A stretch of DNA of 64,000 bases, taken from a virus. Lineage: Duplodnaviria; Heunggongvirae; Uroviricota; Caudoviricetes. A program made the translations under genes and the position numbers. The stretch lies in IMG/VR virus record IMGVR_UViG_3300032303_001313, positions 81,172 through 145,171 of that record; one strand, 5' to 3'. Below, piece after piece: positions 5,385 through 59,384 of this stretch. Each line of letters opens with the position of its first letter. Within the stretch, counting starts at the first letter, position 1. The notes below the pieces were generated by a model, which was given only the letters and a program-made list of their open reading frames with translations, searched no databases and had not been told where the DNA came from.

Positions 5385-6024
5385 AATTCATGTTTTGGTA
5401 TACTGCTCTATGAGTCTTCATTAGTTTAATAAATATGTTGGCTTCATCTTTTACGTCCTGTAAGGCATCGTGAGCATTTTCTAGTGAAAGTCCCATTCGT
5501 TCACGCAAAGAATCCATGCTAATAGACTTAACACCGGGATCGCTCTCTGTCCAAGCAAATATATTATCCATAATATCGAACTTGTATATCTTACTAAATA
5601 GTTTCTGATGATCACGTTCATTATCCCAAGGCCCGTACTCTTTACATAAACGATTGATGATAATTAAGTCGAAACCAATAATGTTAAATCCAACAGGAAT
5701 TGGGTTAAAAAATGGCTCGCCCTTCCAATTATAAGCAAGAACAAATTTGGCAAACTTTGACCATACAGATTCTAAAGAAGGGGCTTTTATAAGTTGCTCT
5801 CTAGTCTTTTGAGTTACTTTTAAAGCACCGTCTTCTACTGGATCAAATCCAGCAGCAATAGCCTTTTCGTCATCAAGTATTGGTTTAATTTCACTATTGA
5901 ATTGACCTTTAACTTTTAAGGTTCTACCATCAATTGCCAAAGCGGCCAATTGTGTTGGTTGAGTTTTATGAGGATTTCTACTTCCGCTCTCAAAATCGAA
6001 CACAATAAAATCTCTGTTAGCCAT
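5344..6024 (-). CDS. DnaQ-like DEDDh 3'-5' proofreading exonuclease
   Basis: Exo I FDFES, Exo II IGFD and Exo III H..DALQD motifs. The start ATG overlaps the stop of upstream dnaE-N (AATGGCTAA). Confidence 0.75.
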   Translation of the reverse strand: MANRDFIVFDFESGSRNPHKTQPTQLAALAIDGRTLKVKGQFNSEIKPILDDEKAIAAGFDPVEDGALKVTQKTREQLIKAPSLESVWSKFAKFVLAYNWKGEPFFNPIPVGFNIIGFDLIIINRLCKEYGPWDNERDHQKLFSKIYKFDIMDNIFAWTESDPGVKSISMDSLRERMGLSLENAHDALQDVKDEANIFIKLMKTHRAVYQNMNFDKAFADGNLYVK

Positions 6025-7684
6025 TTGTTGCTCCTGTTAATTCTTCTATGTACATCAATTTATCAAGTAAATTAATCGCTAAAATATCTAACTTTGGACG
6101 CCCTAATGCTTCTAATGCTGACATTTCTAGTCCTACAATCTTTTCATCTGTTCCATCTTGGCATACCATTGGGCATACCTCTTCTAAAGGTTCAGCAGAA
6201 ATAACAACTCCCGCCGGATGCTTTCCCTTAGATTTGTATGTTCCTTCAATCTTTATTGCTTGATCAAAGAACTCTGCATAATCGCCCTCAAGTTTGCCAT
6301 CTTCTGATATTCTACAAAAGTCCTTAAGTTCTTCTGAGTTGTTGATTAATGCCCACTTTATGATAGAACGATCTTCTTTATACATTTCTTCTAACTGGTC
6401 AGAGATTCTAGCCTCGTCTGGAATACAGTTACTAATAGCGTTCATTTCTGCAAAAGAACAGGCTTCATTAACACGCAATACTTCTTTGATAGCACTCTTA
6501 CCCTGTAAACTACCTAATGTGATCATTTGGCTTACATGGTTATGACCATACTTTTCTTTTAGGTAAGCAATAACCTCGTCACGCTTATTACCGGGAACAT
6601 CTATATCAATATCTGGTAGAGAAACATAATCGGCAGTATTTCTACCAGCATTATAGAATCTGGCAAATAGTAAGTCGAATTCAATAGGGTCGATTTTGGT
6701 GATACCAATTAGATAAGAAATCAAACAACCAGCAGCCGATCCTCTTCCCGGCCCAGTTAACCAGTCGCGACTATTAACGTAATGTATGATATCTTGCACA
6801 ACCAAAAAATACCCGAATAGAGTAGCATTCTTGATTACTTCAAACTCTTCTTTAAATCTATCTAAATATCTTGTTTTTACTGTTTCATCTTTGACCTTAC
6901 TTTGATCCACAAGTAATTTCTTCCAACCTTTTCTGCATAGTTCTTTTAAGTATTCTTCTTCTGATAAGTTGTTTGGGCATGGGAATTTTGGAAGAATTGG
7001 CTTGCTAAGAATGTTGTAATCTTCGCACTGATTACGAATTTGGTCTAATACTTTAGTATCTTTAGACTTAGACTCTTCTTTATCAAGAACGTAAAAAGTG
7101 TCATGAATAAAGAAGTCAACTTTGTCTACTAGTTTGTTTTCGGAAATAGACTTCCTAATTTGGGGAAGTGTTGTTTTCATTTCAGAGCAAAGTAGTATTC
7201 TATGTAGTTTAGCGTCTTGCTGATCTACATAATAACTAGGATCGCAATTTGTAAAGTCTTTTCCGCTTAAAACGTAGAAGTTATTGTTCTTCGATATTGT
7301 TGCTAAGTCTTGCTGCAATTGTCCATTTTTATCTAATGATGATACTAACTTGATTAAGTCAAACCATCCATTTTTGTTCTTTACAAATACTGCAAAATCA
7401 TCAAAAGAGCAACCAATTATGGGCTTAATTCCGCCCTCTTTGCAGGCTTGAAAGAATTCAACTGTTCCAGCAATAGTCTTATAGTCGCATATTCCGCAAG
7501 TATCGTAGCCATTTTCTTTGCACTTCTTTACTAAATGCTCTGGTTTAGAGTAAGCATTGCGTAAACTGTAGTGAGTATAATTCCTAAGAGGAAACCAAGA
7601 CATATTCTTCCTTTGTAAAAACTTTAACGTAACACAACTTGTTATACCGCCTTGGGGCCATAAGTTAATATGACCCCCATTCAA
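6017..7684 (-). CDS. dnaE: DNA polymerase III alpha subunit, N-terminal portion (PHP domain and palm)
   Basis: PHP motif HYSLRNA..; palm GPGRGSAAGCLISYLIGIT..DP..FDLLFARF..PDIDIDV; HPAGVVIS; ends at the KLDILAINLL (FDFLGLRTL-equivalent) fingers segment. Confidence 0.8.
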   Translation of the reverse strand: MNGGHINLWPQGGITSCVTLKFLQRKNMSWFPLRNYTHYSLRNAYSKPEHLVKKCKENGYDTCGICDYKTIAGTVEFFQACKEGGIKPIIGCSFDDFAVFVKNKNGWFDLIKLVSSLDKNGQLQQDLATISKNNNFYVLSGKDFTNCDPSYYVDQQDAKLHRILLCSEMKTTLPQIRKSISENKLVDKVDFFIHDTFYVLDKEESKSKDTKVLDQIRNQCEDYNILSKPILPKFPCPNNLSEEEYLKELCRKGWKKLLVDQSKVKDETVKTRYLDRFKEEFEVIKNATLFGYFLVVQDIIHYVNSRDWLTGPGRGSAAGCLISYLIGITKIDPIEFDLLFARFYNAGRNTADYVSLPDIDIDVPGNKRDEVIAYLKEKYGHNHVSQMITLGSLQGKSAIKEVLRVNEACSFAEMNAISNCIPDEARISDQLEEMYKEDRSIIKWALINNSEELKDFCRISEDGKLEGDYAEFFDQAIKIEGTYKSKGKHPAGVVISAEPLEEVCPMVCQDGTDEKIVGLEMSALEALGRPKLDILAINLLDKLMYIEELTGATNG

Positions 7685-8701: not shown

Positions 8702-9530
8702 GTATTAGTTTTTTAGTGTCGTTAAAAATCTTTTCTAATCTTTCTCTAGGTATTCTATTTCGGAAGTAGTTGTAAATACTGTATATCATGATATCGTCAG
8801 GATTTTTAGTAATTTCCAACCAGCCAACGAAATAGTTCCATATTCTATCTTCTAATATGAGTGGATATTTCACACCGTCAGGTCTACCAAATCTATGATT
8901 CCACCTTAGACTAGGAAGGCAGATGTTTTTACCACCGTTACGTCTGAATTTCTCTGCAATATATCCTTCTTCTCCACCAAACCCCTTGAAATGTTCGTTT
9001 ACACCAACCCAATTTTCTTTTTCAAATGCTAATAGACCCATTCCCTGCATAGGAATTTCGAACGGGGTTTCTATATTATCTGTAGCCCAAATACCGAACA
9101 TATCTCCACTCCACTTTGGTGTGAAATGGGTAGATATTGATTTAAGATTGTCGTGTAGTAGCGGCCCTTGCACCAAATCCTTGCAGTTTGGGTGATCTTC
9201 AAAATACTTTAATAGACTACTAATTCCGCCCTTGTCTATTAAAACGTGGCAGTCTATGATTAATACATACTTACCAGTTGCATAATCAACTATTTTGTAT
9301 TTATTGAATGATGAATTTGTTCTATAAGGTATATACTTACCACCGCCAACATGACCTTCTAAAAAATTCCTACAGGCTAATGCGTGAGTTCCTGTTGGAT
9401 TATTATCAAGGACTATGAATTCTACATCGTCTAGATTAAGATCATGATACATTCTTAGTGATTGTATGGAGAAAAATACCCCATCATAATCATCATAAGT
9501 TGCCATTCCAATTGTAAGTAATTTACTCAT
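8676..9530 (-). CDS. glycosyltransferase family 2-like
   Basis: N-terminal TIGMATYDDYD...EFIVLDNNP resembles the GT2 DXD and Rossmann signature. Confidence 0.4.
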   Translation of the reverse strand: MSKLLTIGMATYDDYDGVFFSIQSLRMYHDLNLDDVEFIVLDNNPTGTHALACRNFLEGHVGGGKYIPYRTNSSFNKYKIVDYATGKYVLIIDCHVLIDKGGISSLLKYFEDHPNCKDLVQGPLLHDNLKSISTHFTPKWSGDMFGIWATDNIETPFEIPMQGMGLLAFEKENWVGVNEHFKGFGGEEGYIAEKFRRNGGKNICLPSLRWNHRFGRPDGVKYPLILEDRIWNYFVGWLEITKNPDDIMIYSIYNYFRNRIPRERLEKIFNDTKKLILGDNYATS

Positions 9531-9533
9531 ATA

Positions 9534-10553
9534 TTAACCCGGAGCAGAATAGAAGCCGATATTGAAACCTTCTCTAGTACATTCTTTTATAGTATGTTCC
9601 ATCCCATTAGTTTGTAAAACATCTTCAACATACTGGCATATATTCTTTTCACTTCCCGGCCACTTGTTTTTGCAATAATGACATAGTTTTGTGCATTTCC
9701 AGTTATCTCTGTTTTTAGATATTGGTTGGGGCTTTTCATTCTCTTTTATCTCTAAGAATCTTTTCTTCAACATATTCTTGAACTTTTCTTGATCAGACTC
9801 GTCAAAACACATTGAAAAAGGCCCGCCGTCTTTAATGAAGAAGATGCTCATTATTGACTGTTTGTAATCTGGAAATAGTTTGGAAATTGCATAGTTATAT
9901 AGCAATAGTTGTGGATCAGAACAAAGTTTCTCATATGTTTTCTCTTCACCAGTAGCCCAATCAAGACGCCTTCCCGTTTTCCAATCTATTACTTCAATTA
10001 CTCCGTCATCGACCTCTGTTACTAAGTCTATAGTCCCCTTAATAGCAAGTTGCCCCTTAACCTTCTCACCATTAATTTCATATTCATAGAAAGCCCAATC
10101 TTCATCAATTGGAATATCAAAGTGTGGTTCTGCTTCTACTATTTTGCGGTATCTAGGATCAAACTGACCCTCATTATACTTCAAAGTATTCCATACTAAT
10201 TCTGCACATTGATCTTTGTCAGTCTTGCTAAATGAATTCTTTGAATCTCTGGTATAGTTACAAAAACTGGAAGTTATTAGATTATCAACAACACTATCTT
10301 GTAACAATTCACTTCTCTTTATGGTAATGCCGCCCAACGCATCATCAATGACGGTAATCTTCGTCTTAGATGGATAATCTTGATTGAACTTTTTTAGTTT
10401 TGCTAGAACTTCCAAAACCTTATGAACTATAGTTCCTAATTCAGCCTTCTTACCACTATCTGATTGATGCCCCAATACATATGTAATAAAATACTGCATT
10501 TGACAGTAAGAATAGTTATTGTAACTGGACGATCTGAGATACGTTATAAGCAT
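9534..10553 (-). CDS. PD-(D/E)XK nuclease (Cas4/RecB-like exonuclease)
   Basis: IDLVTE...IEVIDWKTG core (D..E.K) plus a C-terminal Cys cluster CTKLCHYCKNKWPG consistent with the Fe-S Cas4-like family. Confidence 0.5.
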   Translation of the reverse strand: MLITYLRSSSYNNYSYCQMQYFITYVLGHQSDSGKKAELGTIVHKVLEVLAKLKKFNQDYPSKTKITVIDDALGGITIKRSELLQDSVVDNLITSSFCNYTRDSKNSFSKTDKDQCAELVWNTLKYNEGQFDPRYRKIVEAEPHFDIPIDEDWAFYEYEINGEKVKGQLAIKGTIDLVTEVDDGVIEVIDWKTGRRLDWATGEEKTYEKLCSDPQLLLYNYAISKLFPDYKQSIMSIFFIKDGGPFSMCFDESDQEKFKNMLKKRFLEIKENEKPQPISKNRDNWKCTKLCHYCKNKWPGSEKNICQYVEDVLQTNGMEHTIKECTREGFNIGFYSAPG

Positions 10554-11310: not shown

Positions 11311-12321
11311 TTAAATGTGTGGTAAAATACTCTCTTGTATATCCTTGACTTCCATAGCACCAACGTCTTTAAGATCATACCTAGGAAGTCTTGGAAAAGA
11401 CAGTTTGTATGTTCTGTGTAATTGTCTCTGGATAGCGACTTTGGCTTCTCTACCCGCTTGATCTTGATCCATTAATACGATAATCTTAGTAATCGGTAGT
11501 TGATTTAACTTATATTCCTGTTCTTGACTTAATGTTTTACCAAACAATCCCATTACTTGATAAATACCGGCTTCGTACAATTTCCAAACGTCGCCCTGAC
11601 CTTCTACTAAAATAACAGAATTTGTTTTCTTGATATGTTCTACTGCCCTGTGGTAATTGTAAAATACAAACCTCTTATCAAACCCTTTTGGAGTAATAAG
11701 AAATTTGGGGGATTTATATTCATATATCGCCCTAGCAATACAAGCAATTATTTTTGATCCATCGTCATTATGGATGGGAATTATAGAACGTCCAAACAAC
11801 TTCGATTTTTTATCTAAACAGTCCCCTATCTCAAAGTATTTTAGCGTTTCTTCCTTAAATTTCCTGCTTAAAAAATACTGAGAAGGAACCGTACTACAGT
11901 ATTCGAAATCAATATCTTCGCTTTTCTTGCTAAATCTATCTTCTGTTAAACTAATCACAAGTTTTGAAAATTCGTCCTCATTAACTGGAGCATTACTAGT
12001 TACTTTGCTATTAACACCTAAAAACTTACAAGCCCATTTTAATGCTTCTGAAAATCCAACATCTGCACCGCTTTCTTTAGACAAAGTTCCACGAATTAGT
12101 CCAAATATATCGTTGCGATATTCTGACTGACAATCTCTAGTCCAGCATTTCCAAATACCTTTTTGCTTTGAAAATGAGAAGGCCCGAGGATTATCACTAC
12201 CATCATGAACGGGACAATTGCAATAGATATTATCGCCAAGAGTCTCGTATTCCATTCCTAACTTAATAAAAACCTCTTCGGCCCTATTATTCAATTGGTT
12301 TTTGATCTTGTATAAGTCCAT
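11311..12321 (-). CDS. dnaG: DnaG-type DNA primase (Zn-finger and TOPRIM)
   Basis: CNCPVHDGSDNPRAFSF zinc-finger; TOPRIM VILVEGQGDVWKLYEAG ... DQDQAGREA. Confidence 0.75.
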   Translation of the reverse strand: MDLYKIKNQLNNRAEEVFIKLGMEYETLGDNIYCNCPVHDGSDNPRAFSFSKQKGIWKCWTRDCQSEYRNDIFGLIRGTLSKESGADVGFSEALKWACKFLGVNSKVTSNAPVNEDEFSKLVISLTEDRFSKKSEDIDFEYCSTVPSQYFLSRKFKEETLKYFEIGDCLDKKSKLFGRSIIPIHNDDGSKIIACIARAIYEYKSPKFLITPKGFDKRFVFYNYHRAVEHIKKTNSVILVEGQGDVWKLYEAGIYQVMGLFGKTLSQEQEYKLNQLPITKIIVLMDQDQAGREAKVAIQRQLHRTYKLSFPRLPRYDLKDVGAMEVKDIQESILPHI

Positions 12322-13855
12322 TAATCTTTATCTTGTCTAGTGCGTTTTGGTCAACTAAGCCTGTATCAGAAATTGGTTGCTTTTTTAACTCATTTCTGGT
12401 TTTGATTTCTCTTAACCTAGCATGAGAACCTTGCATTACCATGTTAATATAGTCTCCATCTTCAAGTCCACCGCCGTGTCTTGCAACAATAGGCACTAAC
12501 TTTCTATTACCAGCATTTGGCCCATCTTCTGCCAACTCTTCTGGAGACTTGGTTTTGAAGATAGTAAATGATGTACACAGCCAGATTAGTCTATCAGAAC
12601 CGCTTACAGCGTCTGTGCTTTCTTTGGTAATACCGTCACGGTTTAACTGGACGAATGCTAAACATGGGATATCTAGTTTTACGCATAGATTGTGTAGTGC
12701 AGTAATTTGAAAACCTAGTGCTTGATACTCTTGGATGTTATTAGTAATAGAACTAGCAGACATTAACTTCAAGTAGTCAAATATGATCAAACAATTATTT
12801 GTGCGACCATTTTCATCACTTCCAACCTCTTTCATAACCCATCTTTTGATTAGGTTAAGAATTTGCTCAAAAGGTTTGCCCGCTACACTGATATAATGAT
12901 ATGGAATTGATTCTATTAATGTTACAGCGTCATGTACACTAGTTCGTTTTTCATCGTCAGATACATATCTACCTTTAGCAACCTCGTTTACTTCAACACC
13001 GCTGATATTTGCTATCAACCTATTAAAGTGATCTTTTTCGCTCATTTCTGTGTCTATAACTAAAACTGGGATGCCCATTTTGGTTACATTCAAGGCCACA
13101 TTGTCAGTAAATATACTCTTACCAACCTTGGGCCTTGCAGAAACTAAATCAACACACTGTCTGCGTAATCCGCCACCAATGGCTTCGTCATATCTAGAAT
13201 ATCCACTTGGAATTCCAATTATGTCGCACGGATTGCTCTCTACAAATTCAATATATTCTCTGATATTCTTACTAAGTTTTTCTGGAACGTCGCCGCTATC
13301 ATCTTCTCTTAGAAAGTCAGTAACTGGATTTTCTAATAGTTTAACAATTTCATCTATACTCTCAGTCCCATTCACTTCATCAACGTCTTTGCTAATCTTA
13401 GATATTAGTAGTTTGATCTTACGAGCAAATTCAAACTTTTTAATCTGGATAGCAAAGTGAAATACATTGTCTTTATGAACTGGGAATTGTAAGAGTGACT
13501 TTATATACTTGATTTCTTGATCAGTATTAATGTTCTCATATAGATTTAACTGTTGAGCAACCGACAAAATAGATGGTATATCAACCTTCTGATCATTTAT
13601 TACTATCTTTTCAACGCACTTGAATAGAATTTGATTATTTAAGTGTGTAAAAGTATCTTCTGTTACAATGTCTGAGACTGTAACATAAGCATCTAATCCA
13701 TATTGCATCAAGCCAGCCAGTACGGCCCGCTCTGATCCTATGTCAGAAAGTTGTGTTTCCATATTAACCACCAATACATCTACTGCATCGATAGTATTCA
13801 CCATAGATGGTTGACGGGTCTTCTTTGAATTTCTTACCGCAAACGTGGCATTCAA
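12287..13855 (-). CDS. dnaB: replicative DnaB-family helicase
   Basis: N-terminal SERAVLAGLMQYG; Walker A SARPKVGKS; RecA-like core; ends near primase. The true start may be an internal Met near 13762 (METQLSD). Confidence 0.85.
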   Translation of the reverse strand: MNATFAVRNSKKTRQPSMVNTIDAVDVLVVNMETQLSDIGSERAVLAGLMQYGLDAYVTVSDIVTEDTFTHLNNQILFKCVEKIVINDQKVDIPSILSVAQQLNLYENINTDQEIKYIKSLLQFPVHKDNVFHFAIQIKKFEFARKIKLLISKISKDVDEVNGTESIDEIVKLLENPVTDFLREDDSGDVPEKLSKNIREYIEFVESNPCDIIGIPSGYSRYDEAIGGGLRRQCVDLVSARPKVGKSIFTDNVALNVTKMGIPVLVIDTEMSEKDHFNRLIANISGVEVNEVAKGRYVSDDEKRTSVHDAVTLIESIPYHYISVAGKPFEQILNLIKRWVMKEVGSDENGRTNNCLIIFDYLKLMSASSITNNIQEYQALGFQITALHNLCVKLDIPCLAFVQLNRDGITKESTDAVSGSDRLIWLCTSFTIFKTKSPEELAEDGPNAGNRKLVPIVARHGGGLEDGDYINMVMQGSHARLREIKTRNELKKQPISDTGLVDQNALDKIKINGLIQDQKPIE

Positions 13856-44897: not shown

Positions 44898-44927
44898 ACA
44901 AAACGGTGGAGACGCACTAAAAAATAA

Positions 44928-45277
44928 GTGGAGGCGTTGAGATTTGAACTCAAGTCCAGAGTAATTTCAATACAAACTTCTACATCCTTAGTTAATTGTT
45001 ATCGTACAACTAAACAAAACTAACAGAATTATCTGTGTCAGATTGAGTACAATCATCATCCTCATTTATGTTTGGTGAGGCTACCATATCCGATTATCGG
45101 AGTCAGCATGATTGGGCAATACGGTTCATACCACCGCACTCTTGCCTAACTGGGTCAGGCAGCGAGAGCGAAACGAGTTTCGCCAATTAACATTTCAATC
45201 GACTTTTATACTGGCCGGTCGATTAACCAGTGGATGCCATCTATATCTACGTTTACCTGTCGATACCTTTCGCCCCC
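44928..45277 (-). ncRNA. ssrA: tmRNA (SsrA); encoded tag ends ...FALAA
   Basis: Minus strand. The 5' GGGGGCGAAAGGUAUCGACAGG matches the tmRNA 5' consensus GGGG..GG.UUCGAC.GG. The 3' T-arm UUGAGUUCAAAUCUCAA plus acceptor CGCCUCC pairs with the 5' GGGGGCG (one G.U). Internal frame GGC GAA ACU CGU UUC GCU CUC GCU GCC UGA encodes GETRFALAA followed by stop. Confidence 0.7.
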
Positions 45278-46032: not shown

Positions 46033-46105
46033 AGCAGCAGAAGGGAATCGAACCCTCAACAGCCAGATTGGAAATCTAGTACTCTACCAGTTGAGTTACT
46101 GCTGC
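46033..46105 (-). tRNA. tRNA-Gly (anticodon UCC)
   Basis: Hand-folded cloverleaf on the minus strand: acceptor GCAGCAG/CUGCUGC, D-stem ACUC/GAGU, anticodon stem CUAGA/UCUGG, loop UUUCCAA, T-arm GAGGG-UUCGAUU-CCCUU, discriminator U. Confidence 0.7.
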
Positions 46106-48636: not shown

Positions 48637-49146
48637 TCATGGCTTATAGTTCACAACAATTACTTTAAGATTTGAAAGTTCTTTCTCAATTATCTTCTCT
48701 ATTCTGTTCCAATCTCCACCTGCTAATCCTGCTCCAATTTTAGGCATACCTATAGTTTTACCACTAACGAATATTTGATTAATTTTTCTCATGCAAACTG
48801 TAAATGCTTCGTAATCAAAAGGTTCAACATCGCCGTCAGAATGATTCTTACCATACTTATACTGAGTATAAGCATTAACAACAGCAACTTGTTTGTCATA
48901 GTTAGATTTTTCGCTAAAACATACATCACAATATTTGTAATCTATATTACCTAATTTATTGATAGTTGGGCCTTCTCGTTCCATACGAAATTTATCACAA
49001 CCAAAAGCCTTTGCCATTTGTGGAGCAATTCCGGCCCCCATTGTGCTAAAGCAATTACATCCATGAACAACAATATCAAAATGTCCTTCTTGGGCAAGTT
49101 TAATCAAATCCCCGTCTATGTATTCAATCACTTCCTTTTTCTCCAA
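48637..49146 (-). CDS. macro domain protein (ADP-ribose binding/processing)
   Basis: IVVHGCNCFSTMGAGIAPQMAKAFG matches the macro-domain VNAAN...GGGV motif; later GIGAGLAGG. Confidence 0.65.
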   Translation of the reverse strand: MEKKEVIEYIDGDLIKLAQEGHFDIVVHGCNCFSTMGAGIAPQMAKAFGCDKFRMEREGPTINKLGNIDYKYCDVCFSEKSNYDKQVAVVNAYTQYKYGKNHSDGDVEPFDYEAFTVCMRKINQIFVSGKTIGMPKIGAGLAGGDWNRIEKIIEKELSNLKVIVVNYKP

Positions 49147-49183: not shown

Positions 49184-49564
49184 TCATAACTTTTCCCAAT
49201 GTTCCTTAATAAATCCGCTAATTTGTTTGAAATCCCAACCACATCCATCATTTAAGTAAATTAAGTCAATTTTGTAATCTTTGTAATCTTCTACTATTGA
49301 TGGTATTGGCGTTTCAATGATACCAATAGAAGTTTTAATTCCAGCCCATTCACATACTTCACTTGGTAATGTGTTACAATAACCGTTATAAAAACAAAGA
49401 CCTTTTATATTTTCAAATCTAATATCACCACCTTGCTTCATACATAAATCGGTTAGAACTCCTAAACAACAATGTTTTCCATCCTTACATAATCCTCCCC
49501 CACCTTGCGTGTATTCTCCACTCTCAAGAGCATCACACCAAAGATCAGCAATTTCTTTACGCAT
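49184..49564 (-). CDS. uncharacterised 'HCCLGVL' family protein (paralogue 1 of 3)
   Basis: Shares W..AL.SG...QG.G.L.......HCCLGVL ... W.AG ... ND.G motifs with 52032..52445 and 52414..52770. Confidence 0.45.
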   Translation of the reverse strand: MRKEIADLWCDALESGEYTQGGGGLCKDGKHCCLGVLTDLCMKQGGDIRFENIKGLCFYNGYCNTLPSEVCEWAGIKTSIGIIETPIPSIVEDYKDYKIDLIYLNDGCGWDFKQISGFIKEHWEKL

Positions 49565-50261
49565 AGTACGCCCTTTCTGCTAAAACTTTATCACAAGACC
49601 AAACAGTATTATTACTTATAGTTACAAGAAACAAACCGTTTGTCATAGTATACTTCTCATTTACAACACTAGCATTTAGCAACAACGAAGAACCTAGTTC
49701 GTATTGTCCATGACTATGATGAATATGTCCATAAACACAAACTTTGGGCTTATTTTGCCTAATCATTGAAGTAAGTTTTTTTGATCCTACCAACTCTGGT
49801 TGTGATCCGTTAAAACTCGGAACAGAATCCCCATAACTATAAGGAGGCCCGTGAGTAATCAACACATCAACATCATTAGGAATTAGATCATAAACATTAT
49901 TCAAGTCCTCTTCATCAAGGTTAAATGCCCAATCATAAAATCTACGCTGCCAAGGGCTACCGTAAAACTTTAGACCGTTATAAACAAATGATTCATCAAT
50001 TAGAAACTTACAATTAGGAATGTTAACTTCCTTATGAAGATATTCTCCTACATAATCATGATTTCCATAAGTGCAGATAACTTGCTTTGTTTTGCTAATC
50101 CACTGGGCAAATTCCTTGTGTAGCCAATTACGCTGATATTCAGCATCAGTTCGTGGATGGTTAACAAAGTTGGGGCAAATATCTCCACTAATTACCAGAA
50201 CATCACACTCTGGAATATGGAAAAATTGACCGTGATTGTCACTTGCAAAGCAGATTTTCAT
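49557..50261 (-). CDS. calcineurin-like metallophosphoesterase
   Basis: MPE motifs D.H (SDNHG), GD (SGDI), GNHD and GH.H (GHIHHSHG). Confidence 0.7.
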   Translation of the reverse strand: MKICFASDNHGQFFHIPECDVLVISGDICPNFVNHPRTDAEYQRNWLHKEFAQWISKTKQVICTYGNHDYVGEYLHKEVNIPNCKFLIDESFVYNGLKFYGSPWQRRFYDWAFNLDEEDLNNVYDLIPNDVDVLITHGPPYSYGDSVPSFNGSQPELVGSKKLTSMIRQNKPKVCVYGHIHHSHGQYELGSSLLLNASVVNEKYTMTNGLFLVTISNNTVWSCDKVLAERAYYA

Positions 50262-50270
50262 ATTGTTTCC

Positions 50271-51107
50271 TTAACAACTACGCAGCATTCCGCAGTAATA
50301 AGAGTCTATCTTACTACACGAAACTGGTTTGTCAACAGATCGCAGTATGGTTTCTTTACAAAAAGTATTCAATGTAACATCATCTTGAGGTATTGTCTTA
50401 ACGGGCAAATCTTTAACTATTCTAGAATACAAGTCTATTTTTTCTCTTAAATATTCATTAAGACAGTGTATTCTGTCGCCTTCGTCAAGTTCAGCCCCAC
50501 TCTTTTTTCTAACTAACAAATCATTTACCTTGTCTTTTATCTCAGTATCATGTAGTTCGTTTTGAAGTAGAGTATCAAACAACATAGGAGCATGAGTTTT
50601 GGTGCGGAATATCCATGAACAGCACAAAACTGGCCTAAGAACATAAAAGTATTTCTTAAGTTTTACACTATCCTTTTGCAAGAATAAGTCGAAGTTATTT
50701 CGGGCCATGTGTAAATAGTGATAAATACTACTCTTAGGATCAAAAAACTTTTCTCTTAAACTTCGTAGTTTATTGATGAACGTATCATCTTGGCTATAGA
50801 TTATGGGGCTATCTAACCACTCTAAAAGACAAGGATTACTCTTAGCAAATAATCGCAAACTCTTTTTAAGTTCCCACCCACTAAAGTCAAGATCATTCTC
50901 ATTAATCATCTTTTCAATAGTATCTTTTAAGTTGTTACTAATACTAAAATAATAGTCAAGATTATTAACATACAAGAATCTAACATCGTAATCACTGTTT
51001 ATGCTGCTAAATCCCCATGCTCTACTGCCGCTTTCAACAGCATATAGAATCTTGATCTTACGTTCTTTTTCAAGAAGGCTAAGATTATGTATGATATTTG
51101 GTGTCAT
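50271..51107 (-). CDS. pol-beta-superfamily nucleotidyltransferase (minimal NTase; PF10127/RlaP-like)
   Basis: YAVESGSRAWGFSSINSDYDVRF has the G-S-x9-13-D-x-D NTase signature; a third acidic residue lies in DLDFSGWEL. Confidence 0.5.
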   Translation of the reverse strand: MTPNIIHNLSLLEKERKIKILYAVESGSRAWGFSSINSDYDVRFLYVNNLDYYFSISNNLKDTIEKMINENDLDFSGWELKKSLRLFAKSNPCLLEWLDSPIIYSQDDTFINKLRSLREKFFDPKSSIYHYLHMARNNFDLFLQKDSVKLKKYFYVLRPVLCCSWIFRTKTHAPMLFDTLLQNELHDTEIKDKVNDLLVRKKSGAELDEGDRIHCLNEYLREKIDLYSRIVKDLPVKTIPQDDVTLNTFCKETILRSVDKPVSCSKIDSYYCGMLRSC

Positions 51108-52772: not shown

Positions 52773-53300
52773 TTATATTCCTTTAAGTCCCATTTCCTTC
52801 ATTTGTAAAATAACTTCACCATTTCCTATAGCATCATTAACCGGATTGTGATCGTGAATTGTTTTTCTAAGGTGTTTCCATTTTGTTCTAACGTTTTTTA
52901 CCATACCGCAATAAAGATCGCCAATTCGTCGCCCGCTATATCCAAAAGGATTGCTTCCATAATAAACGTGAAAATAGTAGTTGATAAACTGCCAATCATA
53001 GCAAGGATTGTCGCTAACAAATATTGGTCGATCAATACTATTTCGCTCTATCCATTCTGCAAATTCTTTTATAACTGTTGATGGGTCATCAAAAGTTTCG
53101 TGCTGTTTTCGTGAAAAACCACTTATAGAAAGTGCTTCCTTATCATAGTTATCAGAAATTGGTCTAACTTTTCCATAAAATGTTTTGTTTAAACAGTCAT
53201 CAACAATAACTGCCCCAAAACAAACCATACTATAAAGTGGAGGCACAGGCCCATCACTCTCAACATCAACTACTATCCAACTCATTTTATTCCTCAACAA
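52773..53300 (-). CDS. small DEDDh 3'-5' exonuclease (oligoribonuclease/DnaQ-like)
   Basis: WIVVDVESDG (Exo I DxE), the region around SDNPCYDW (Exo II) and HNPVNDAIGNGE (Exo III H...D). Confidence 0.55.
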   Translation of the reverse strand: MLRNKMSWIVVDVESDGPVPPLYSMVCFGAVIVDDCLNKTFYGKVRPISDNYDKEALSISGFSRKQHETFDDPSTVIKEFAEWIERNSIDRPIFVSDNPCYDWQFINYYFHVYYGSNPFGYSGRRIGDLYCGMVKNVRTKWKHLRKTIHDHNPVNDAIGNGEVILQMKEMGLKGI

Positions 53301-53333: not shown

Positions 53334-53906
53334 TTATTCTTGAACGTTTTCATTTTTCTTACCAAATAGTTTTTGTAATTCCTTGAAACTCCAAGGTTCT
53401 CCAAATACTTTACCATAATTCTTCGTGTTGTCAACTCCAACATCCAAAGTTTTGCGATAACTCATTTGATCTTCATAATCTAATTTTCCATGACTATGAC
53501 CATATAGCATCCAACTACCTTTATGAGAAGCGGGCCAAACTCTTGAGGCATAATGACTTAGATATATTCTTTGGTTACAACATATTACTTCTTTAACTTC
53601 TTGAACACTAGTGAATCCTATATCTATTCTAGCAGCACTCATATTATCTATATATTTGGATCGTTTGTCATGATTGCCTAGTATTAGATGAATATCTTTA
53701 CAAACTATTCTTGATACATATTGTTCTGGTTTACCACCTTTAAGACAAAAATCACCCAGCATATATAGAGTATCATCAACGCCAACAACATTATTGATAT
53801 TGTCGATTATAACTTGATCCATTATGTGAACATTATCAAATGGACGATCACAATACTTAATGATATTATAATGACCAAAATGAGTATCAGATGTAAAATA
53901 TATCAT
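53334..53906 (-). CDS. calcineurin-like metallophosphoesterase
   Basis: SDTHFGH, LGDF, GNHD and GHSHG motifs. Confidence 0.7.
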   Translation of the reverse strand: MIYFTSDTHFGHYNIIKYCDRPFDNVHIMDQVIIDNINNVVGVDDTLYMLGDFCLKGGKPEQYVSRIVCKDIHLILGNHDKRSKYIDNMSAARIDIGFTSVQEVKEVICCNQRIYLSHYASRVWPASHKGSWMLYGHSHGKLDYEDQMSYRKTLDVGVDNTKNYGKVFGEPWSFKELQKLFGKKNENVQE

Positions 53907-54062
53907 TTGTAAATGAACTTAAAGGAAATAAAAGCAGCATTTCAATCTTATAGAAACCCTGCCGAAACTTTACGGAAGTTGATTATGGGAATACCCGCGA
54001 TCCCAACCTTTCGGCATCAACATTTTCATTATACCACGCTAGAGCAAGTTGTCAATCACCGC

Positions 54063-54266
54063 TTACAGCAGTTTGTTTTCTTTCAATATACTGTACAAAT
54101 TTTTCAATTCATTTTCATCAATCCTTATTTCGTCAGGATCAAAACTATTGTAGTTGAATACTCTAATCAAATAAGGTCTATTTTTAATATTGGGATTATG
54201 ATGAATTTCAATAACATCATATTCCAGATTAAATGTTCTCTGCTTCGTGTTGGTTATGTTTAGCAT
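54063..54266 (-). CDS. hypothetical protein
   Basis: ORF preceded by the conserved ATCAGGAGCATCGCA RBS element. Confidence 0.3.
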   Translation of the reverse strand: MLNITNTKQRTFNLEYDVIEIHHNPNIKNRPYLIRVFNYNSFDPDEIRIDENELKNLYSILKENKLL

Positions 54267-54693
54267 TTTTATTGCGATGCTCCTGATGGCGAACTTGTAT
54301 TTCTTTTGTCCACTTCCTTAGTCTATTACCTTCGCAATGGTTTGGGCCTCTTCCGTAGACCTGCTCAACGACGACAAATACCTCAACTTGCGATCCTTCT
54401 GCAAGAGCCTTCTGTAATGCTTCAACCTGCGGAAGCATTCCTTTATTTATCCAAGCCACCGCCTCGCCGTTAACGTGCAACTTGTGCCAATCCGAACCTT
54501 GCACCCAATGTGAAGTTGTTCCAAGATACTCGCCCATCGCTGACTTATATTTTTGTCCGATTGTAGTGGGTACAACCGGACGCTCAACATAGTTTGTTGA
54601 TTCTATTGATTCAATATGAATCGACAGCAAACTCACAAAAGAGTGAGTAACAATTGGATGCAAAGAAGTATCTGGACTGTCTGGTTTGGTCAT
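54229..54693 (-). CDS. hypothetical protein in GC-rich islet
   Basis: ORF with about 47% GC against a genome background of about 33%; no recognisable motif. Confidence 0.35.
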   Translation of the reverse strand: MTKPDSPDTSLHPIVTHSFVSLLSIHIESIESTNYVERPVVPTTIGQKYKSAMGEYLGTTSHWVQGSDWHKLHVNGEAVAWINKGMLPQVEALQKALAEGSQVEVFVVVEQVYGRGPNHCEGNRLRKWTKEIQVRHQEHRNKNAKHNQHEAENI

Positions 54694-54791
54694 GGCATTA
54701 TCTTTGTCGGGGTTTGTTCATCTAATTTTTGACCGGCTCGGACTACAAAGCCAAAAGCCTTGTCGTCCTGCGGTGTAGTCGAATCACTCAT
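54690..54791 (-). CDS. hypothetical micro-protein (33 aa) in GC-rich islet
   Basis: Hand-translated MSDSTTPQDDKAFGFVVRAGQKLDEQTPTKIMP; AGGAG RBS; the TGA stop overlaps the ATG of the next gene (ATGA). Confidence 0.3.
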   Translation of the reverse strand: MSDSTTPQDDKAFGFVVRAGQKLDEQTPTKIMP

Positions 54792-54821
54792 GCGATGCTC
54801 CTGATCCTTCACGTTCTGTGG

Positions 54822-55028
54822 CTACCTGCCGTCGTCCACAAGAGGCCCGCGACTCGCCATGTATCGTCCGCATTCTCCACACCTCGGCGGCCATTCTCCG
54901 CAGCCGTGAATAGGGCAATCGTCGTCAGGCTCAAGGCCAACCGTAGAGCAGCGGCAAGTTCGATCTGCTCTACAAATGTGCGCCACAGAACCACGCGATA
55001 GAATGGACTGCTCGGCGTTGTCGTTCAT
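54822..55028 (-). CDS. zinc-ribbon protein in GC-rich islet
   Basis: About 57% GC; probable start MNDN with an AAAGGAGA RBS; the track ORF extends to 55067. C-terminal CPIHGCGEWPPRCGECGRYMA zinc ribbon. Confidence 0.4.
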   Translation of the reverse strand: MNDNAEQSILSRGSVAHICRADRTCRCSTVGLEPDDDCPIHGCGEWPPRCGECGRYMASRGPLVDDGR

Positions 55029-55072
55029 GGTTGCTGTCTCCTTTGTTCGCGGCTGTTGACGTAGCAAGTAAA

Positions 55073-55396
55073 TTATACACTATTTTGACCTTGTAGGACA
55101 TTTTTCATAAAGTTCATATAGTTGAGCATAATCCAATCTCCTTGAGTAACATTGCCAACTATTACATAGTTATCATTTTGAGAATAGTCTTGATTCCTAT
55201 CATATTGTATGTAAAAATCCTCAGAACAAGAGGACTTCATAGCATTTAGGTCAATAACTAATTCTTGGGCTTCTTTATGCCCATTAACTATACAAGAACA
55301 TTCTATAAGGCTCATGTTACTACTCTTGGATTTTAGTTCCGACATCGTATGGATATCCATTTTCGGGATCGTCACTATATATGCCTTCGTAGGCAT
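55073..55396 (-). CDS. hypothetical protein
   Basis: ORF. Confidence 0.3.
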   Translation of the reverse strand: MPTKAYIVTIPKMDIHTMSELKSKSSNMSLIECSCIVNGHKEAQELVIDLNAMKSSCSEDFYIQYDRNQDYSQNDNYVIVGNVTQGDWIMLNYMNFMKNVLQGQNSV

Positions 55397-55411
55397 TTTC
55401 CCAATATGGGT

Positions 55412-55717
55412 TCAGTATAAACTGTTGAATAAATTAGGCTGGTAATACCTTCGGCAACGCTTGAGGAAAGACGGAAGAAGACTACGCAGTTTGAAAGGAA
55501 GATCGTTTTCACTAATATTCCTCTTAAGAGCGCGTTCAATAGCAATCTTAAGACCAAACTTCTTGCTGAAACGATCACCGGCTCGGCACTGAGCGAACCC
55601 AATGTTATACGCAACGTTATCAACCTTTACTGCAACCAGAACCCCGTTTGGAACCCCGTTATCGTCGCGGTTGTAGGTAATAAGCGTGTACTGCGGAATA
55701 TCAAAATTGTCGGTCAT
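55412..55717 (-). CDS. hypothetical protein
   Basis: ORF; likely start MTDNFD; the track ORF extends to 55750. Confidence 0.3.
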   Translation of the reverse strand: MTDNFDIPQYTLITYNRDDNGVPNGVLVAVKVDNVAYNIGFAQCRAGDRFSKKFGLKIAIERALKRNISENDLPFKLRSLLPSFLKRCRRYYQPNLFNSLY

Positions 55718-55768
55718 TATTTTTCTCCTTAGATTTGTTTTGCGATGCATGATTTCATTCTACCCTAG

Positions 55769-56071
55769 TCATCGGTCACTGTCAAGCGTTGACTTGAGTT
55801 TTTTACGAATGTCATTACCATTTCCCTTAATTATGTTGAATTCTAGATAATCTTTCCAATCAGAATATCCTTCGGCCCATTTATATTTACTTTCATTTAC
55901 CGATAGGCCCAAAGCATATATCATATCATTAATGAATGTGTCCGTAGTTATCTTTAAATCCTCTGGATAATAGTTATCTATAAAAAACTTCATTCTCTCA
56001 ATCATGTTTAGTACATCTTTATCATTCATCACAATCTCCATTGCATTCGAATTGATCGTACCCTTCATCAA
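55769..56071 (-). CDS. hypothetical protein
   Basis: ORF. Confidence 0.3.
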   Translation of the reverse strand: MMKGTINSNAMEIVMNDKDVLNMIERMKFFIDNYYPEDLKITTDTFINDMIYALGLSVNESKYKWAEGYSDWKDYLEFNIIKGNGNDIRKKLKSTLDSDR

Positions 56072-56429: not shown

Positions 56430-57983
56430 TTACCAACTCAACCTTTTGTGTTCTAGACGATCTCTAATATCTTTTAGATTATGGTCTACACAAAGTTCAC
56501 CATTTTTATAAACAATCTCTAGTTCGCCCAGTTTTTCTTCTTCAATCGACACTTCATCAAATAGAACATATTTATTATTAATCACTTCGATCTTGAGCAA
56601 TCCCTTGGCACTCTTTTTAAGTCCATCGTCTGTTACAGGGTCTTTGAAGATATTTCTATTTTCACCATCAACAACACAATATGTACTCTTAACAGCAATA
56701 CCTAGACTATCTCTAGTATTATAGTTGTATGTATAACTGCCGATACCGAATACTACGTTATTGCTTGCAAAACCCTTTCTTTCTAGTCTCTTACAAATTT
56801 CGTCTGCTCTTTGTAGCGAAATACTATCGCCATAGATTACTCCGATATGACTATCCAATACCTTATAGCCCTTGCTGTTAATTGTGCCGCCAAAAACGTC
56901 CCACAATAGTTCAACAACACCCTTAATTTCAGGACTATTTGTTTTAATTGGTTTGCTATCAGCACGAACTAAATAGTTCCCAGACCATCTTTCAACAATA
57001 TCGTCTACATGATAGAGTTCTCCATTAATATTTTGAGTTTCAAAACCACAAACAATATCAACAGGATCACCGCTATCTGGTCGAATAACCAGTTTTCCAT
57101 CACGACTAAGAATCTTGTCTTTAAGTTTAGTGACAAATGTGGTACAAACTTCCCACAAATCAAAACTATCGCTAACAATACTCACAATGCCGCTAGGAAA
57201 AGTATCTAGAATTCTATCAAAACTATCTAGTTCGTTTTCTTTTCCGTAACTTGTCATTATGCTATGTTCTGTAGCAGGAACACTACTACCAATCAATTCT
57301 TTAGTTATATCAGCATTGTAATATTCTTCTAGCATAAAAACGCTAGGAATAGTATCAGTACCAGTAAAACTAAGCAAATGTCCCGCTTGATTAAAGGTGC
57401 TTTCTGTGCTACTTCTTCCTCGTTGAGCAAAATCGTGTCCCTGCCATTGTACAAAACTAGTATCGTCGCAAGTTTTATTTGCGTGTTCTGTTAGCAACTT
57501 TTTATATTGGTATGCAATTGTAGCATTAACACAACAGTCCCAAATAGTGGTACTCATTTGAGTTTCTAGAAAGTTAACTAGCCATGCAAAATCACGATGA
57601 GTATTAGTAATTGTGAAGAAAGGAATCTTCTCATTAACTAGCGAACCTTCTGGTAACGCTTTAATCTTAATAGGAAGATAGCCCAAGTTATGCAACTTCG
57701 TAATATGATCTGTTGGCATATCATAAAAACTAAAGTGTTTGTGAAATCGCTTAAATTGTGCCAGCACTTCTTCTAGTGGCCTATTGAAAAAGTTCTCATT
57801 CCACTGATTAATTAGGTATTCTTTGATGTAGTATTGCAGACCAAAAAATACTGCTTTGTCGCATTTTAGGTGCTTATAACTACGGGGAGTCATATTACTA
57901 TAAAGTTTAGTAATTCCTTTTGGATACATCATCCAGTGAAACTGTTTATAAGAATCACTTAGAAGAATTGGTAGAATTTGCAT
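56430..57983 (-). CDS. nicotinamide phosphoribosyltransferase-like enzyme (NAMPT family; Namat-like of NARP1)
   Basis: 517 aa; C-terminal FGIGSYTYNYNTRDSLGIAVKST...FKDPVTDDGLKKSAKGLL matches the NAMPT FKDPV.D...KKS.KG region. Confidence 0.75.
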   Translation of the reverse strand: MQILPILLSDSYKQFHWMMYPKGITKLYSNMTPRSYKHLKCDKAVFFGLQYYIKEYLINQWNENFFNRPLEEVLAQFKRFHKHFSFYDMPTDHITKLHNLGYLPIKIKALPEGSLVNEKIPFFTITNTHRDFAWLVNFLETQMSTTIWDCCVNATIAYQYKKLLTEHANKTCDDTSFVQWQGHDFAQRGRSSTESTFNQAGHLLSFTGTDTIPSVFMLEEYYNADITKELIGSSVPATEHSIMTSYGKENELDSFDRILDTFPSGIVSIVSDSFDLWEVCTTFVTKLKDKILSRDGKLVIRPDSGDPVDIVCGFETQNINGELYHVDDIVERWSGNYLVRADSKPIKTNSPEIKGVVELLWDVFGGTINSKGYKVLDSHIGVIYGDSISLQRADEICKRLERKGFASNNVVFGIGSYTYNYNTRDSLGIAVKSTYCVVDGENRNIFKDPVTDDGLKKSAKGLLKIEVINNKYVLFDEVSIEEEKLGELEIVYKNGELCVDHNLKDIRDRLEHKRLSW

Positions 57984-57999
57984 TTTAGGTATATACTCC

Positions 58000-58221
58000 T
58001 TAAAGGTAGATTTTGTTTATAAAAGAAAGGCACTTTTTGCAATTCTCAGTATCGTGCCAACTATATCCATCTTTCTCTGTTCTGTAGAAGTGTCCATCCT
58101 CGCTATACCAACCACCCCTATACCAACATAAGAATTGATATATAATGTCAAATATTATTATTATTGGAAAGAAAAAAATGGACACTATTATTATCAAACC
58201 AATAAAATCTGAATCATTCAT
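58000..58221 (-). CDS. small membrane protein
   Basis: IGLIIIVSIFFFPIIIIF TM. Confidence 0.3.
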   Translation of the reverse strand: MNDSDFIGLIIIVSIFFFPIIIIFDIIYQFLCWYRGGWYSEDGHFYRTEKDGYSWHDTENCKKCLSFINKIYL

Positions 58222-58222
58222 T

Positions 58223-58507
58223 TTAATGCCTCAAATTTTTACTATCTTCCCACTTAGTGTATTGTGAGCCAAAAACCGTTATCATAACCTTGTCATACAT
58301 ATAGTCCAGATAATCATCATCCCATCGGCCATTATTAATTGAATCTCTAACCTTAAGAGCATATTGAATAATAGGACTCCAATTTTGGTATTCTGTTATT
58401 ATAGGAAGTTCTTGTTCTGTTTTTCTTCGTTCAAGTTCTTTTTCAAGATCAGTAGTAGAAAAATCTCTGATATCAACAATGGTATCAACAATCATATTAT
58501 TCTCCAA
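58223..58507 (-). CDS. hypothetical protein
   Basis: ORF. Confidence 0.3.
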   Translation of the reverse strand: MENNMIVDTIVDIRDFSTTDLEKELERRKTEQELPIITEYQNWSPIIQYALKVRDSINNGRWDDDYLDYMYDKVMITVFGSQYTKWEDSKNLRH

Positions 58508-59384
58508 ATGTAGTTGCTAGAGCGTCCAAACAATCGTAAACAATAATGTTATTACACTCATTTTTGACCGCCCCTTGCAAACTATTTGTTGTATAAACCT
58601 TATTAAAGGCTGTTAATACAATATCTTTTCCTCTTGTAAAAGACGAATGAGTAACCCACAAGTCCATAGTTATGTTATTAAATTTCTTATGAAATTCATG
58701 AGCCAACATAACATGAGTACCAAATCCTGTACCAATATCATCAACTAGTAATAGTTTCTTACAATTAAGGTCTATATCTGGTATTGTTGGGTTGCTCAAC
58801 TGACCAGTAGCAGGATCACGATTTTTTGTACATATATGAATTGGAAGATTCAATGCTTGACTCCATTGTTCGCATCTATTTAATGCCCCCTTATCTGGAC
58901 AAATAATACCATCATACTTATTATTTTTTAGGTTATGAGCATAATTATACGAACCAATATTTTCTACTGTTGTTGCATAGTTATTAAAGAGTTCTTCAAA
59001 AATGTCAGAGTGAATATCCAAACATTGTATGTGAAAATCAATTCCCATATCCCAATCTACACTAGTCAAAAACTTAGTAAAAACCCTTAGCGAAAAAGGT
59101 TGATTAGTAGTTGATGCTCGGTCTTGTCTAGCATGAGGAACATAAGGAATATAAAGGTTAACGCTTTTAGGAGAGTTATTAGATATAACATCAGTTAACA
59201 ATCCTATTTTCATTAGTTCAGCATCATTTTCATACTTCCACACTATAACAACATCTTGTTGATTTGTCATTTCAGAATCAAACTTAACAAAACTTTCTCC
59301 ATCAGGGAAGTTTAGGAATTCCAAATGTTTAGGATAAGTTCTTTCTAAGAGACTATTGTTGTTTTTTATGTATACATTAATCAT
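58497..59384 (-). CDS. ribose-phosphate pyrophosphokinase-like enzyme (PRPP synthetase family; Adps-like of NARP1)
   Basis: NLYIPYVPHARQDRA (Prs PYxxYARQDR) and the LLLVDDIGTGFGT PRPP-binding loop. Confidence 0.75.
   Translation of the reverse strand: MINVYIKNNNSLLERTYPKHLEFLNFPDGESFVKFDSEMTNQQDVVIVWKYENDAELMKIGLLTDVISNNSPKSVNLYIPYVPHARQDRASTTNQPFSLRVFTKFLTSVDWDMGIDFHIQCLDIHSDIFEELFNNYATTVENIGSYNYAHNLKNNKYDGIICPDKGALNRCEQWSQALNLPIHICTKNRDPATGQLSNPTIPDIDLNCKKLLLVDDIGTGFGTHVMLAHEFHKKFNNITMDLWVTHSSFTRGKDIVLTAFNKVYTTNSLQGAVKNECNNIIVYDCLDALATTFGE

Follow-up and report, generated by a model that had tools for sequence, protein, structure and literature searches.

A likely NARP1 module with a divergent Adps in an uncultured large phage

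We analysed a 64,000-nucleotide stretch of DNA from a Caudoviricetes virus (IMG/VR record IMGVR_UViG_3300032303_001313, positions 81,172 to 145,171), referred to below as the window, in which two large genes of the minus strand probably form a phage NAD+ reconstitution module of the NARP1 type. One gene (58497-59384; identified from the open reading frame (ORF) list, Pfam, a tree and hidden Markov models (HMMs)) encodes a 295-amino-acid (aa) Prs-like protein that resembles Adps, the ADP-ribose pyrophosphokinase of Prs fold. The other (56430-57983; ORF list, PDB match and tree) encodes a 517-aa NAMPT-like protein that resembles Namat, the nicotinamide ADP-ribose transferase of NAMPT fold. We put the probability that the two genes constitute a NARP1 module at about 0.85. 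The assignment, which the preliminary description of this DNA had proposed and which the sequences of both proteins bear out, rests on clade membership, catalytic and specificity residues, operon-like packing, and the absence of an NMNAT gene from the DNA that was screened; from the characterised systems we infer which reactions the pair catalyses, which substrates it prefers and that it counters host defences.

By analogy with these systems, Adps would move the beta-gamma pyrophosphate from ATP to the terminal ribose of ADP-ribose (ADPR), yielding ADPR-pyrophosphate (ADPR-PP), and Namat would catalyse displacement of the pyrophosphate of ADPR-PP by nicotinamide, which would give NAD+ directly. 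The pair would be expected to refill the NAD+ pool after Sir2-, TIR- or SEFIR-type defences have cut NAD+ to ADPR and nicotinamide. Since NARP1 has already been described and structurally characterised, and is present in ca. 4% of sequenced phages according to the paper defining it, one more occurrence is not surprising. The module described here adds an uncultured lineage of large phages to the range of NARP1, and its Adps belongs to a branch absent from the 50,697 deposited phage genomes that served as the comparison set for tblastn (best identity 33%, among 1252 matching records).

The two genes are separated by 513 bp, and the gap holds two small ORFs, one of them encoding a membrane protein, much as had been noted initially (same strand, about 500 bp apart); the family assignments of the large genes by Pfam, NCBIfam and PHROG agree. 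Intergenic spacers across the four-gene stretch are 2-16 nt long, a Shine-Dalgarno-like GGAG, GAGG or AAGGAG precedes each of the four genes, and a scan of the coding strand of the stretch revealed no terminator-like site. The promoter and terminator scan was discarded as evidence, being uninformative: promoter-like sites were fewer than expected from shuffled sequence. We conclude that the four genes are packed in the manner of an operon, and the two small ORFs are probably co-transcribed with the pair. The same two families, in the same Adps-then-Namat order and on one strand, make up NARP1 of Bacillus phages SPbetaL1 and FADO, Escherichia phage Bas63 and Vibrio phage ICP1 (10.1101/2024.02.11.579819; PMC12774641; PMC13586617), where the pair likewise lies in an accessory region of large lytic-type phages.

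The Prs-like protein

The Prs-like protein contains IPYVPHARQDR and the loop LLLVDDIGTGFGTH. It matches Pfam Pribosyltran_N and, weakly, Pribosyltran, with concordant NCBIfam and PHROG matches. Taken at face value, the Pfam and NCBIfam names of the two proteins (Prs and NAPRTase/NAMPT) speak for a classical salvage pathway, in which a true phosphoribosyl pyrophosphate (PRPP) synthetase would supply a NAMPT-like enzyme that makes nicotinamide mononucleotide (NMN), and an NMNAT activity would come from elsewhere in the phage genome or from the host NadR, NadD or PncC. The best PDB matches of the Prs-like protein, which are archaeal class III PRPP synthetases, point the same way, and the cut-off of the TIGR01251 model is just reached (116.4 versus 113). 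However, this generic model was the only one passed, and the validated Adps score on Prs models much as the window protein does, while a real Prs scores 423-533. On TIGR01251, the window protein scores 116, the Adps of ICP1, SPbetaL1, FADO and PHB11 score 96-128, and E. coli Prs scores 423; the value of 128 is that of the homologue from Felixounavirus PHB11, a member of the Bas63 genus whose protein is a putative Adps by homology. On PRK01259, the corresponding scores are 79, 64-94 and 533, with an equivalog cut-off of 297, and on PRK00934 the window protein scores 110 against a cut-off of 296.

Further comparisons place the protein with Adps. An HMM was built from 11 known Adps; in leave-one-out runs the difference between the Adps and PRPP synthetase HMM scores was +78 to +174 for Adps and -83 to -136 for PRPP synthetases. 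The window protein scored 181 on the Adps HMM versus 112 on the PRPP synthetase HMM, and falls on the Adps side. In a neighbour-joining tree (28 sequences, 265 columns, 200 bootstraps), the subfamily of the window protein (100%) and the known Adps formed a clade with 100% bootstrap support, apart from class I and class III PRPP synthetases. The preliminary description had named clustering with the ribose-5-phosphate-using PRPP synthetases as the outcome that would favour salvage; the protein joins the phage Adps clade instead. A phmmer search of 1.84 billion representative proteins gave 7088 matches, and the best 150 of these were Adps-type without exception (HMM difference at least +57). The DDICDG loop typical of ICP1 and Bas63 was present in 108 of these 150 nearest homologues, and the proline of the Y-x-P-x-[AS]-R motif in 117 of the 126 that could be scored.

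Residues important for Adps function are retained. The loop motif PYVPHARQDR (aa 80-89; 59118-59147, minus strand), located by alignment, includes R86, which corresponds to R87 of ICP1 Adps, and P83, a residue typical of the clade, at the position of which class I and III PRPP synthetases carry G or A. The codon of K187 (58824-58826, minus strand) lies in an invariant alignment column and is equivalent to the catalytic lysine (K185 in ICP1, K162 in SPbetaL1, K192 in Vibrio phage Gary), whose role in Adps was reported earlier (PMC13586617; 10.1101/2024.02.11.579819). Along with K187 and R86, D215/D216, H125, D164 and F26 are conserved, so that the catalytic Lys, DD pair, His, Asp and Arg of the NARP1 references, and also their short C-terminus, are all found in the window protein. 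As in all Adps, the active-site His is followed by Ser, and [DS]-T-[GA]-G-T, the canonical loop for ribose-5-phosphate, is no longer present.

The window protein has a fold in common with class III and class I PRPP synthetases (T. volcanium 3LPN, S. solfataricus 4TWB and E. coli Prs) and shares FxDGE, ARQDR, PDxG, KxR and the DD pair with them, the class III enzymes being also of similar length; it differs from them in failing all Prs equivalog thresholds, in the proline of Y-x-P-x-AR and in the missing [DS]-T-[GA]-G-T. Several candidate markers were rejected because of this overlap or for want of conservation. PHROG family phrog_619 does not distinguish Adps, with a score of 193 for E. coli Prs versus 205 for the window protein; pairwise phmmer scores fail to separate Adps from class III PRPP synthetases; PDxGA and KxRDxxTG are not specific to Adps, as the former is present in the class III enzymes of S. 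solfataricus and M. jannaschii and the latter in that of S. solfataricus only; and F92 and D216 of ICP1 are unconserved even among validated Adps.

The pyrophosphate (PP) loop of the window protein, VDDIGTGFGTH (aa 214-224; 58713-58745, minus strand), is a subfamily-specific derivative of the Adps loop DDICDGG-T-F. Graded intermediates among the nearest homologues (DDICDGGGT, DDICDGGYT, DDIGDGFGT and DDIGTGFGT) tie it to the standard loop. With its derived ATP-donor loop, this branch of Adps lends itself as a natural test case for the published "PP-loop rule" by which Adps are recognised. We conclude that, judged by its sequence, the Prs-like protein is a divergent Adps of a deep and so far metagenome-only subfamily.

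The NAMPT-like protein and the route to NAD+

The NAMPT-like gene contains IFKDPVTDDGLKKSAKGLL, and its product matches Pfam NAPRTase (E=1e-42) and NAMPT_N, with NCBIfam and PHROG in agreement. Its top PDB match, with 513 bits, is 9W5X/9W5W, the structure of SPbetaL1 Namat with nicotinamide and NAD+ bound (PMC12774641); human NAMPT scores 240 bits. A further PDB match, to entries 9KE8/9KEO, scored 422 bits. In tblastn, the best matches were those of validated NARP1 phages, SPbetaL1 (50.0% identity), FADO (48.7%) and ICP1 (48.2%), and in alignments the identity to these three Namat proteins was 51-53%. The ranking was bimodal: homologues linked to Adps were 33-51% identical, followed by KVP40-like, Slopekvirus and jumbo-phage Nampt at 27-31%. 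In a bootstrapped neighbour-joining tree, the Namat clade was separated from the KVP40, D490 and PMBT1 enzymes with 100% support, and the window protein was nested inside it.

The substrate-selecting elements lead to the same assignment. The Namat signature of the selectivity-clamp helix is GSxΦ1xΦ2xΦ3TRD, with aromatic residues at x that stack against the ADPR-PP adenine (PMC12774641). Alignment shows that the window protein carries GSYTYNYNTRD at this site (aa 415-425; 56709-56741, minus strand), and the pattern is broadly kept in all 12 other Adps-linked homologues aligned. GGGLLQ takes its place in the two NARP2-type controls and in KVP40 Nampt, the sequence of which was taken from the supplement of the aRES paper. 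The selectivity-clamp loop is S35-Y36-K37-H38 (57870-57881, minus strand), with K37 at the position of R40 in SPbetaL1. According to the published rule, the third residue of this loop is R, K or Y, and after K or Y the next residue stacks (PMC12774641); K37 followed by H38 matches the Bas63-like mode in sequence. The catalytic histidine, H240 of the ATEHS motif (codon 57264-57266, minus strand), occupies an invariant alignment column and corresponds to H243 of Gary Namat, a mutant of which is listed in the supplement of 10.64898/2026.01.28.702374. The nicotinamide, ribose-phosphate and adenine contacts (F, R, D, A, R and D, including the equivalents of Arg306 and Asp215) are all conserved as well. 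The clamp motif and catalytic residues are, according to the alignments, those of the NARP1 references.

About 29 residues are extra relative to SPbetaL1 Namat (aa ~316-346; 56946-57038, minus strand), as seen in the alignments. This difference from the NARP1 references was rejected as a special feature, for it lies at a known hypervariable site, at which there are ca. 80 aa in Felixounavirus PHB11, ca. 50 aa in Pakpunavirus HJ01 and ca. 45 aa in the P0008 partner. We conclude that the NAMPT-like protein belongs, on alignment and tree, to the Namat clade, distinct from KVP40-type Nampt.

NARP2 of Vibrio phage KVP40 (Nampt/NadV and Nmnat/NatV) likewise uses an enzyme of NAMPT fold for the purpose of restoring NAD+. 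The window protein, however, is only ca. 33% identical to two KVP40-type Nampt proteins from other phages (Vibrio D490 and Klebsiella PMBT1). Further differences are that the KVP40-type enzymes have GGGLLQQxDRD at the site of the clamp motif and that the partner gene in the window is of the Adps clade. No CTP_transf_like Pfam match, the sign of an NMNAT, was present in the precomputed annotation of the window, of ca. 4 kb beyond its start, or of the related loci used for comparison (among them L014-L020, of which L016 is the 95%-identical relative), and phmmer with KVP40 NatV gave a best E-value of 1.7. The combination of a NadV-like enzyme with an NMNAT elsewhere, to which the preliminary description had pointed as the alternative, was thus not what we found in the window and related loci. 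Nor were PnuC or NadR domains, which would point to the PnuC-like transporter and the bifunctional NadR-like enzyme of NARP3 (PMC13464706), found among the Pfam matches of genes across the window.

Linkage of the two genes is preserved in relatives. In five other members of the subfamily (94, 69, 55, 52 and 47% identity), the Adps-like gene directly precedes a NAMPT-like gene that encodes 488-532 aa, and 12-95 bp separate the two. Osterman et al. (10.1101/2024.02.11.579819) reported that Namat adjoins 97% of Adps-clade genes, an association that was used to define the Adps clade, and that no phage has both NARP1 and NARP2. The proximity criterion for NARP1 places Adps and Namat within 10 genes of each other, and the window pair lies within this distance.

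Several observations weigh against assigning the pair to NARP1. The Prs-like protein is only 24-28% identical to the Adps of ICP1, SPbetaL1 and FADO, and its subfamily forms a sister branch to the sampled known Adps as a whole instead of falling within them. In pairwise comparison with this protein, archaeal class III PRPP synthetases score 54-73 bits, within the range of known Adps (38-90 bits). The trees of both proteins are distance-based, and the PRPP synthetase outgroup is small: 6 sequences, 4 of them partial, comprising three archaeal class III enzymes, a class III-like metagenomic protein, B. subtilis Prs and E. coli Prs. The loop DDIGTGFGTH is unlike that of every characterised Adps, and in ICP1 Adps the PP loop is the ATP-donor site (PMC13586617). 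Namat enzymes retain some PRPP-to-NMN activity in vitro (10.1101/2024.02.11.579819; PMC12774641), and the NMNAT screen covered 64 kb plus ca. 4 kb, in a genome whose size is 105 kb or more. The last two points also speak for classical salvage. Yet the tree, the HMM scores and the 150 nearest homologues concur in assigning the Prs-like protein to Adps, the adenine clamp missing from KVP40-type Nampt is present in its partner, no NMNAT was found in the 68 kb screened or in the related loci, and both the adjacency of Adps and Namat and the mutual exclusion of NARP1 and NARP2 speak for NARP1. We consider classical salvage very unlikely.

The inserted genes and the Macro protein

Comparison of the window with the 95%-identical relative by blastn revealed that a 519-bp segment (57987-58505) stands where the relative has a 12-bp spacer. 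The segment holds exactly the two small ORFs, and the final codons of the Adps gene were rewritten by the insertion. In most relatives the Adps-Namat pair is tight and the insertion is missing. The NARP1 references, too, have gaps of -4 to 45 bp between the two genes, with overlap in some, in contrast to the two-ORF insertion in the window.

The ORF next to the NAMPT-like gene, ORF73 (58000-58221, minus strand; ORF list and hydropathy), encodes a single-pass membrane mini-protein. Its N-terminal part has one stretch of strong hydrophobicity (residues 9-27, with a Kyte-Doolittle mean of 3.07), and its tail contains Cys and His. No homologue besides itself was found in 5.8 billion protein clusters, and it is absent from all related loci. 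The second, ORF90/94 (58223-58507, minus strand; 90 aa from the ATG start at 58495 and hereafter ORF90), encodes a small acidic protein that is predicted to be helical. Its family comprises only 3 other clusters among 5.8 billion proteins. Homologues occupy the same position between Adps and Namat in L018, L019 and L020, the last being cut down to 59 aa, and a full-length, 35%-identical homologue is found directly upstream of Adps in L015. Members of the family thus stand beside the pair in 5 of the 9 loci of this phage group that were examined, at two different positions; ORF90 is absent from L014, L016 and L017. The strong conservation of its C-terminal half argues that ORF90 is a real gene. 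Neither small ORF matches a Pfam or PHROG family, and neither shows similarity to Adpp (Macro) in Pfam or to aRad1 with an aRad1 HMM. The AlphaFold2 model of ORF90 was poor, with a predicted local distance difference test score (pLDDT) of 57.6, too low for a fold search.

We conclude that the two small ORFs represent a recent insertion into the operon and should be dispensable for the pathway, ORF90 being a recurrent neighbour of the pair and ORF73 a lineage-specific addition. The suggestion that the spacer genes may be accessory components finds weak support: the ORF90 family does recur beside the pair, but the insertion is absent from most members and resembles neither Adpp nor aRad1. A gene between Adps and Namat is in itself not new. 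Pakpunavirus HJ01 has a 72-aa ORF there, Aeromonas phage Aszh-1 has a 1.4-kb gap, and Vibrio phage Gary encodes NARP1-AP with the order Adps-Adpp-Namat (10.64898/2026.01.28.702374), an extra gene lying between the pair as in the window.

NARP1-AP is defined by a Macro-domain Adpp (ADPR-1''-phosphate phosphatase) no more than two genes from the NARP1 pair. No Macro gene was found in the two spacer ORFs or in the five genes on either side of the pair, and in this the window inserts differ from Gary. Both phages do encode an Adpp-type Macro protein; in Gary it is inside the operon, whereas in the window its gene (48637-49146, minus strand) lies outside the operon, 7.3 kb and 17 genes downstream of Namat. 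The protein is 33% identical to the validated Gary Adpp (E=2e-20), retains the H-x-CNCF and IG-GLAGGDW motifs and the His mutated in H24A of Gary Adpp, and matches Pfam Macro (22.9 versus a cut-off of 22) and phrog_335 "phosphatase" (E=4e-46). Equivalents are present 3.7-7.2 kb downstream of the pair in two relatives. With 2712 phage records containing the Macro family, many of them without NARP1, the linkage is weak; we downgraded the gene from a module member to a possible helper. The closest phage relatives of the Macro protein (45.6% identity) are in Cellulophaga phages phi4:1 and phi17:2, which infect Bacteroidota and may hint at the host.

These features could be taken together as an extended or altered NARP1, in which the remodelled PP loop would shift donor or acceptor specificity, or ORF90 or the distal Macro protein would act as an accessory, for example in a dispersed NARP1-AP, or both. 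The conservation of DDIGTGFGTH across the subfamily, the recurrence of the ORF90 family, the retained catalytic His of the Macro protein and the precedent of three-gene NARP1 operons (10.64898/2026.01.28.702374) are consistent with this possibility. It is nonetheless quite unlikely, given that the loop grades into the standard DDICDGG-T, the partner Namat has a standard clamp, ORF90 is missing from the 95%-identical relative and other members and has no detectable fold or family, and the Macro gene lies beyond the two-gene limit of NARP1-AP. The more specific proposal of a variant in which the remodelled donor loop alters substrate or donor use and the 90-aa helical protein is a new accessory factor appears unlikely, too; in such a variant, the 90-aa protein might, by analogy with Adpp and aRad1, act on a modified ADPR product or neutralise a counter-measure of the host. 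Should ORF90 prove functional, it would be a new accessory in the NAD+ arms race; a plain NARP1 module accommodates the present evidence without it.

Phage and genomic setting

The source of the window is an uncultured large phage without a close cultured relative. No match to the 4-kb locus was obtained by megablast against phage genomes, and the alpha subunit of DNA polymerase III (PolIII-alpha) encoded in the window shares no more than 31% identity with any sequence in the 50,697 phage records. Genes of the pair are present on metagenomic contigs of 28.8, 105.6 and ca. 145 kb, and the 94-95%-identical relative is on a 162.7-kb contig. Precomputed Pfam matches reveal a replication and nucleotide-metabolism module in the window, with split PolIII-alpha, RNase T, DnaB, primase and RecA, together with class II ribonucleotide reductase, dUTPase, PhoH, ThyX, rIIA/rIIB and dCMP deaminase. 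The replicative polymerase is apparently a split PolIII-alpha (3783-7684, minus strand), in which the PHP/DNA_pol3_alpha part and the "finger" part are encoded by separate ORFs on either side of a gene for an RNase T-like exonuclease.

After the replication and nucleotide-metabolism module comes a long stretch of small ORFs without assigned function, and the pair is located in this stretch. Over 18 kb around the pair, comparison with the 95%-identical relative revealed a mosaic of conserved blocks and non-homologous segments of small ORFs, which makes the label "accessory region", used from the outset, a fair one. The locus is a hot spot for insertions of small genes and homing endonucleases. 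In L020 (5194-7617), the Namat gene is split just past the region of the catalytic His (window aa ~245-251) by a reverse-strand 209-aa ORF with matches to homing-type endonuclease families (phrog_1035 endonuclease VII, E=1e-16). A cluster of ADP-ribose-related genes (9259-9750 and 11975-12454) is found in L015, a more remote relative whose Adps is of the same subfamily, where a NADAR-domain gene and an Adpp-like Macro gene lie 1 kb and 3.7 kb downstream of Namat, respectively. In L017 (8667-10259), an RlaP nucleotidyltransferase gene immediately follows Namat, and an extra gene for a 148-aa phosphoribosyltransferase-domain protein (PF00156) is located 1.2 kb downstream.

Other features of the window lie downstream of the pair. 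A GC-rich patch (54000-56000; GC content of 0.41 versus 0.32-0.35 nearby) holds several overlapping ORFs, including an 81-aa Cys-rich ORF (54822-55067), and the 95%-identical relative lacks a counterpart to most of the patch. The window also has a phosphoesterase and nucleotidyltransferase cluster there (49557-50261, 50271-51107, 52773-53300 and 53334-53906, all on the minus strand), which comprises two Metallophos genes, RlaP, a Rv2179c-like exonuclease and three DUF8296 paralogues; the 95%-identical relative has additional RtcB and HD_4 genes in this region. Finally, a tRNA-Gly(UCC) gene is located at 46033-46105 (minus strand), and a transfer-messenger RNA gene at 44926-45277 (minus strand), for which ARAGORN gave the tag peptide GETRFALAA and Rfam model RF00023 a score of 99.3 bits versus a gathering score of 47.

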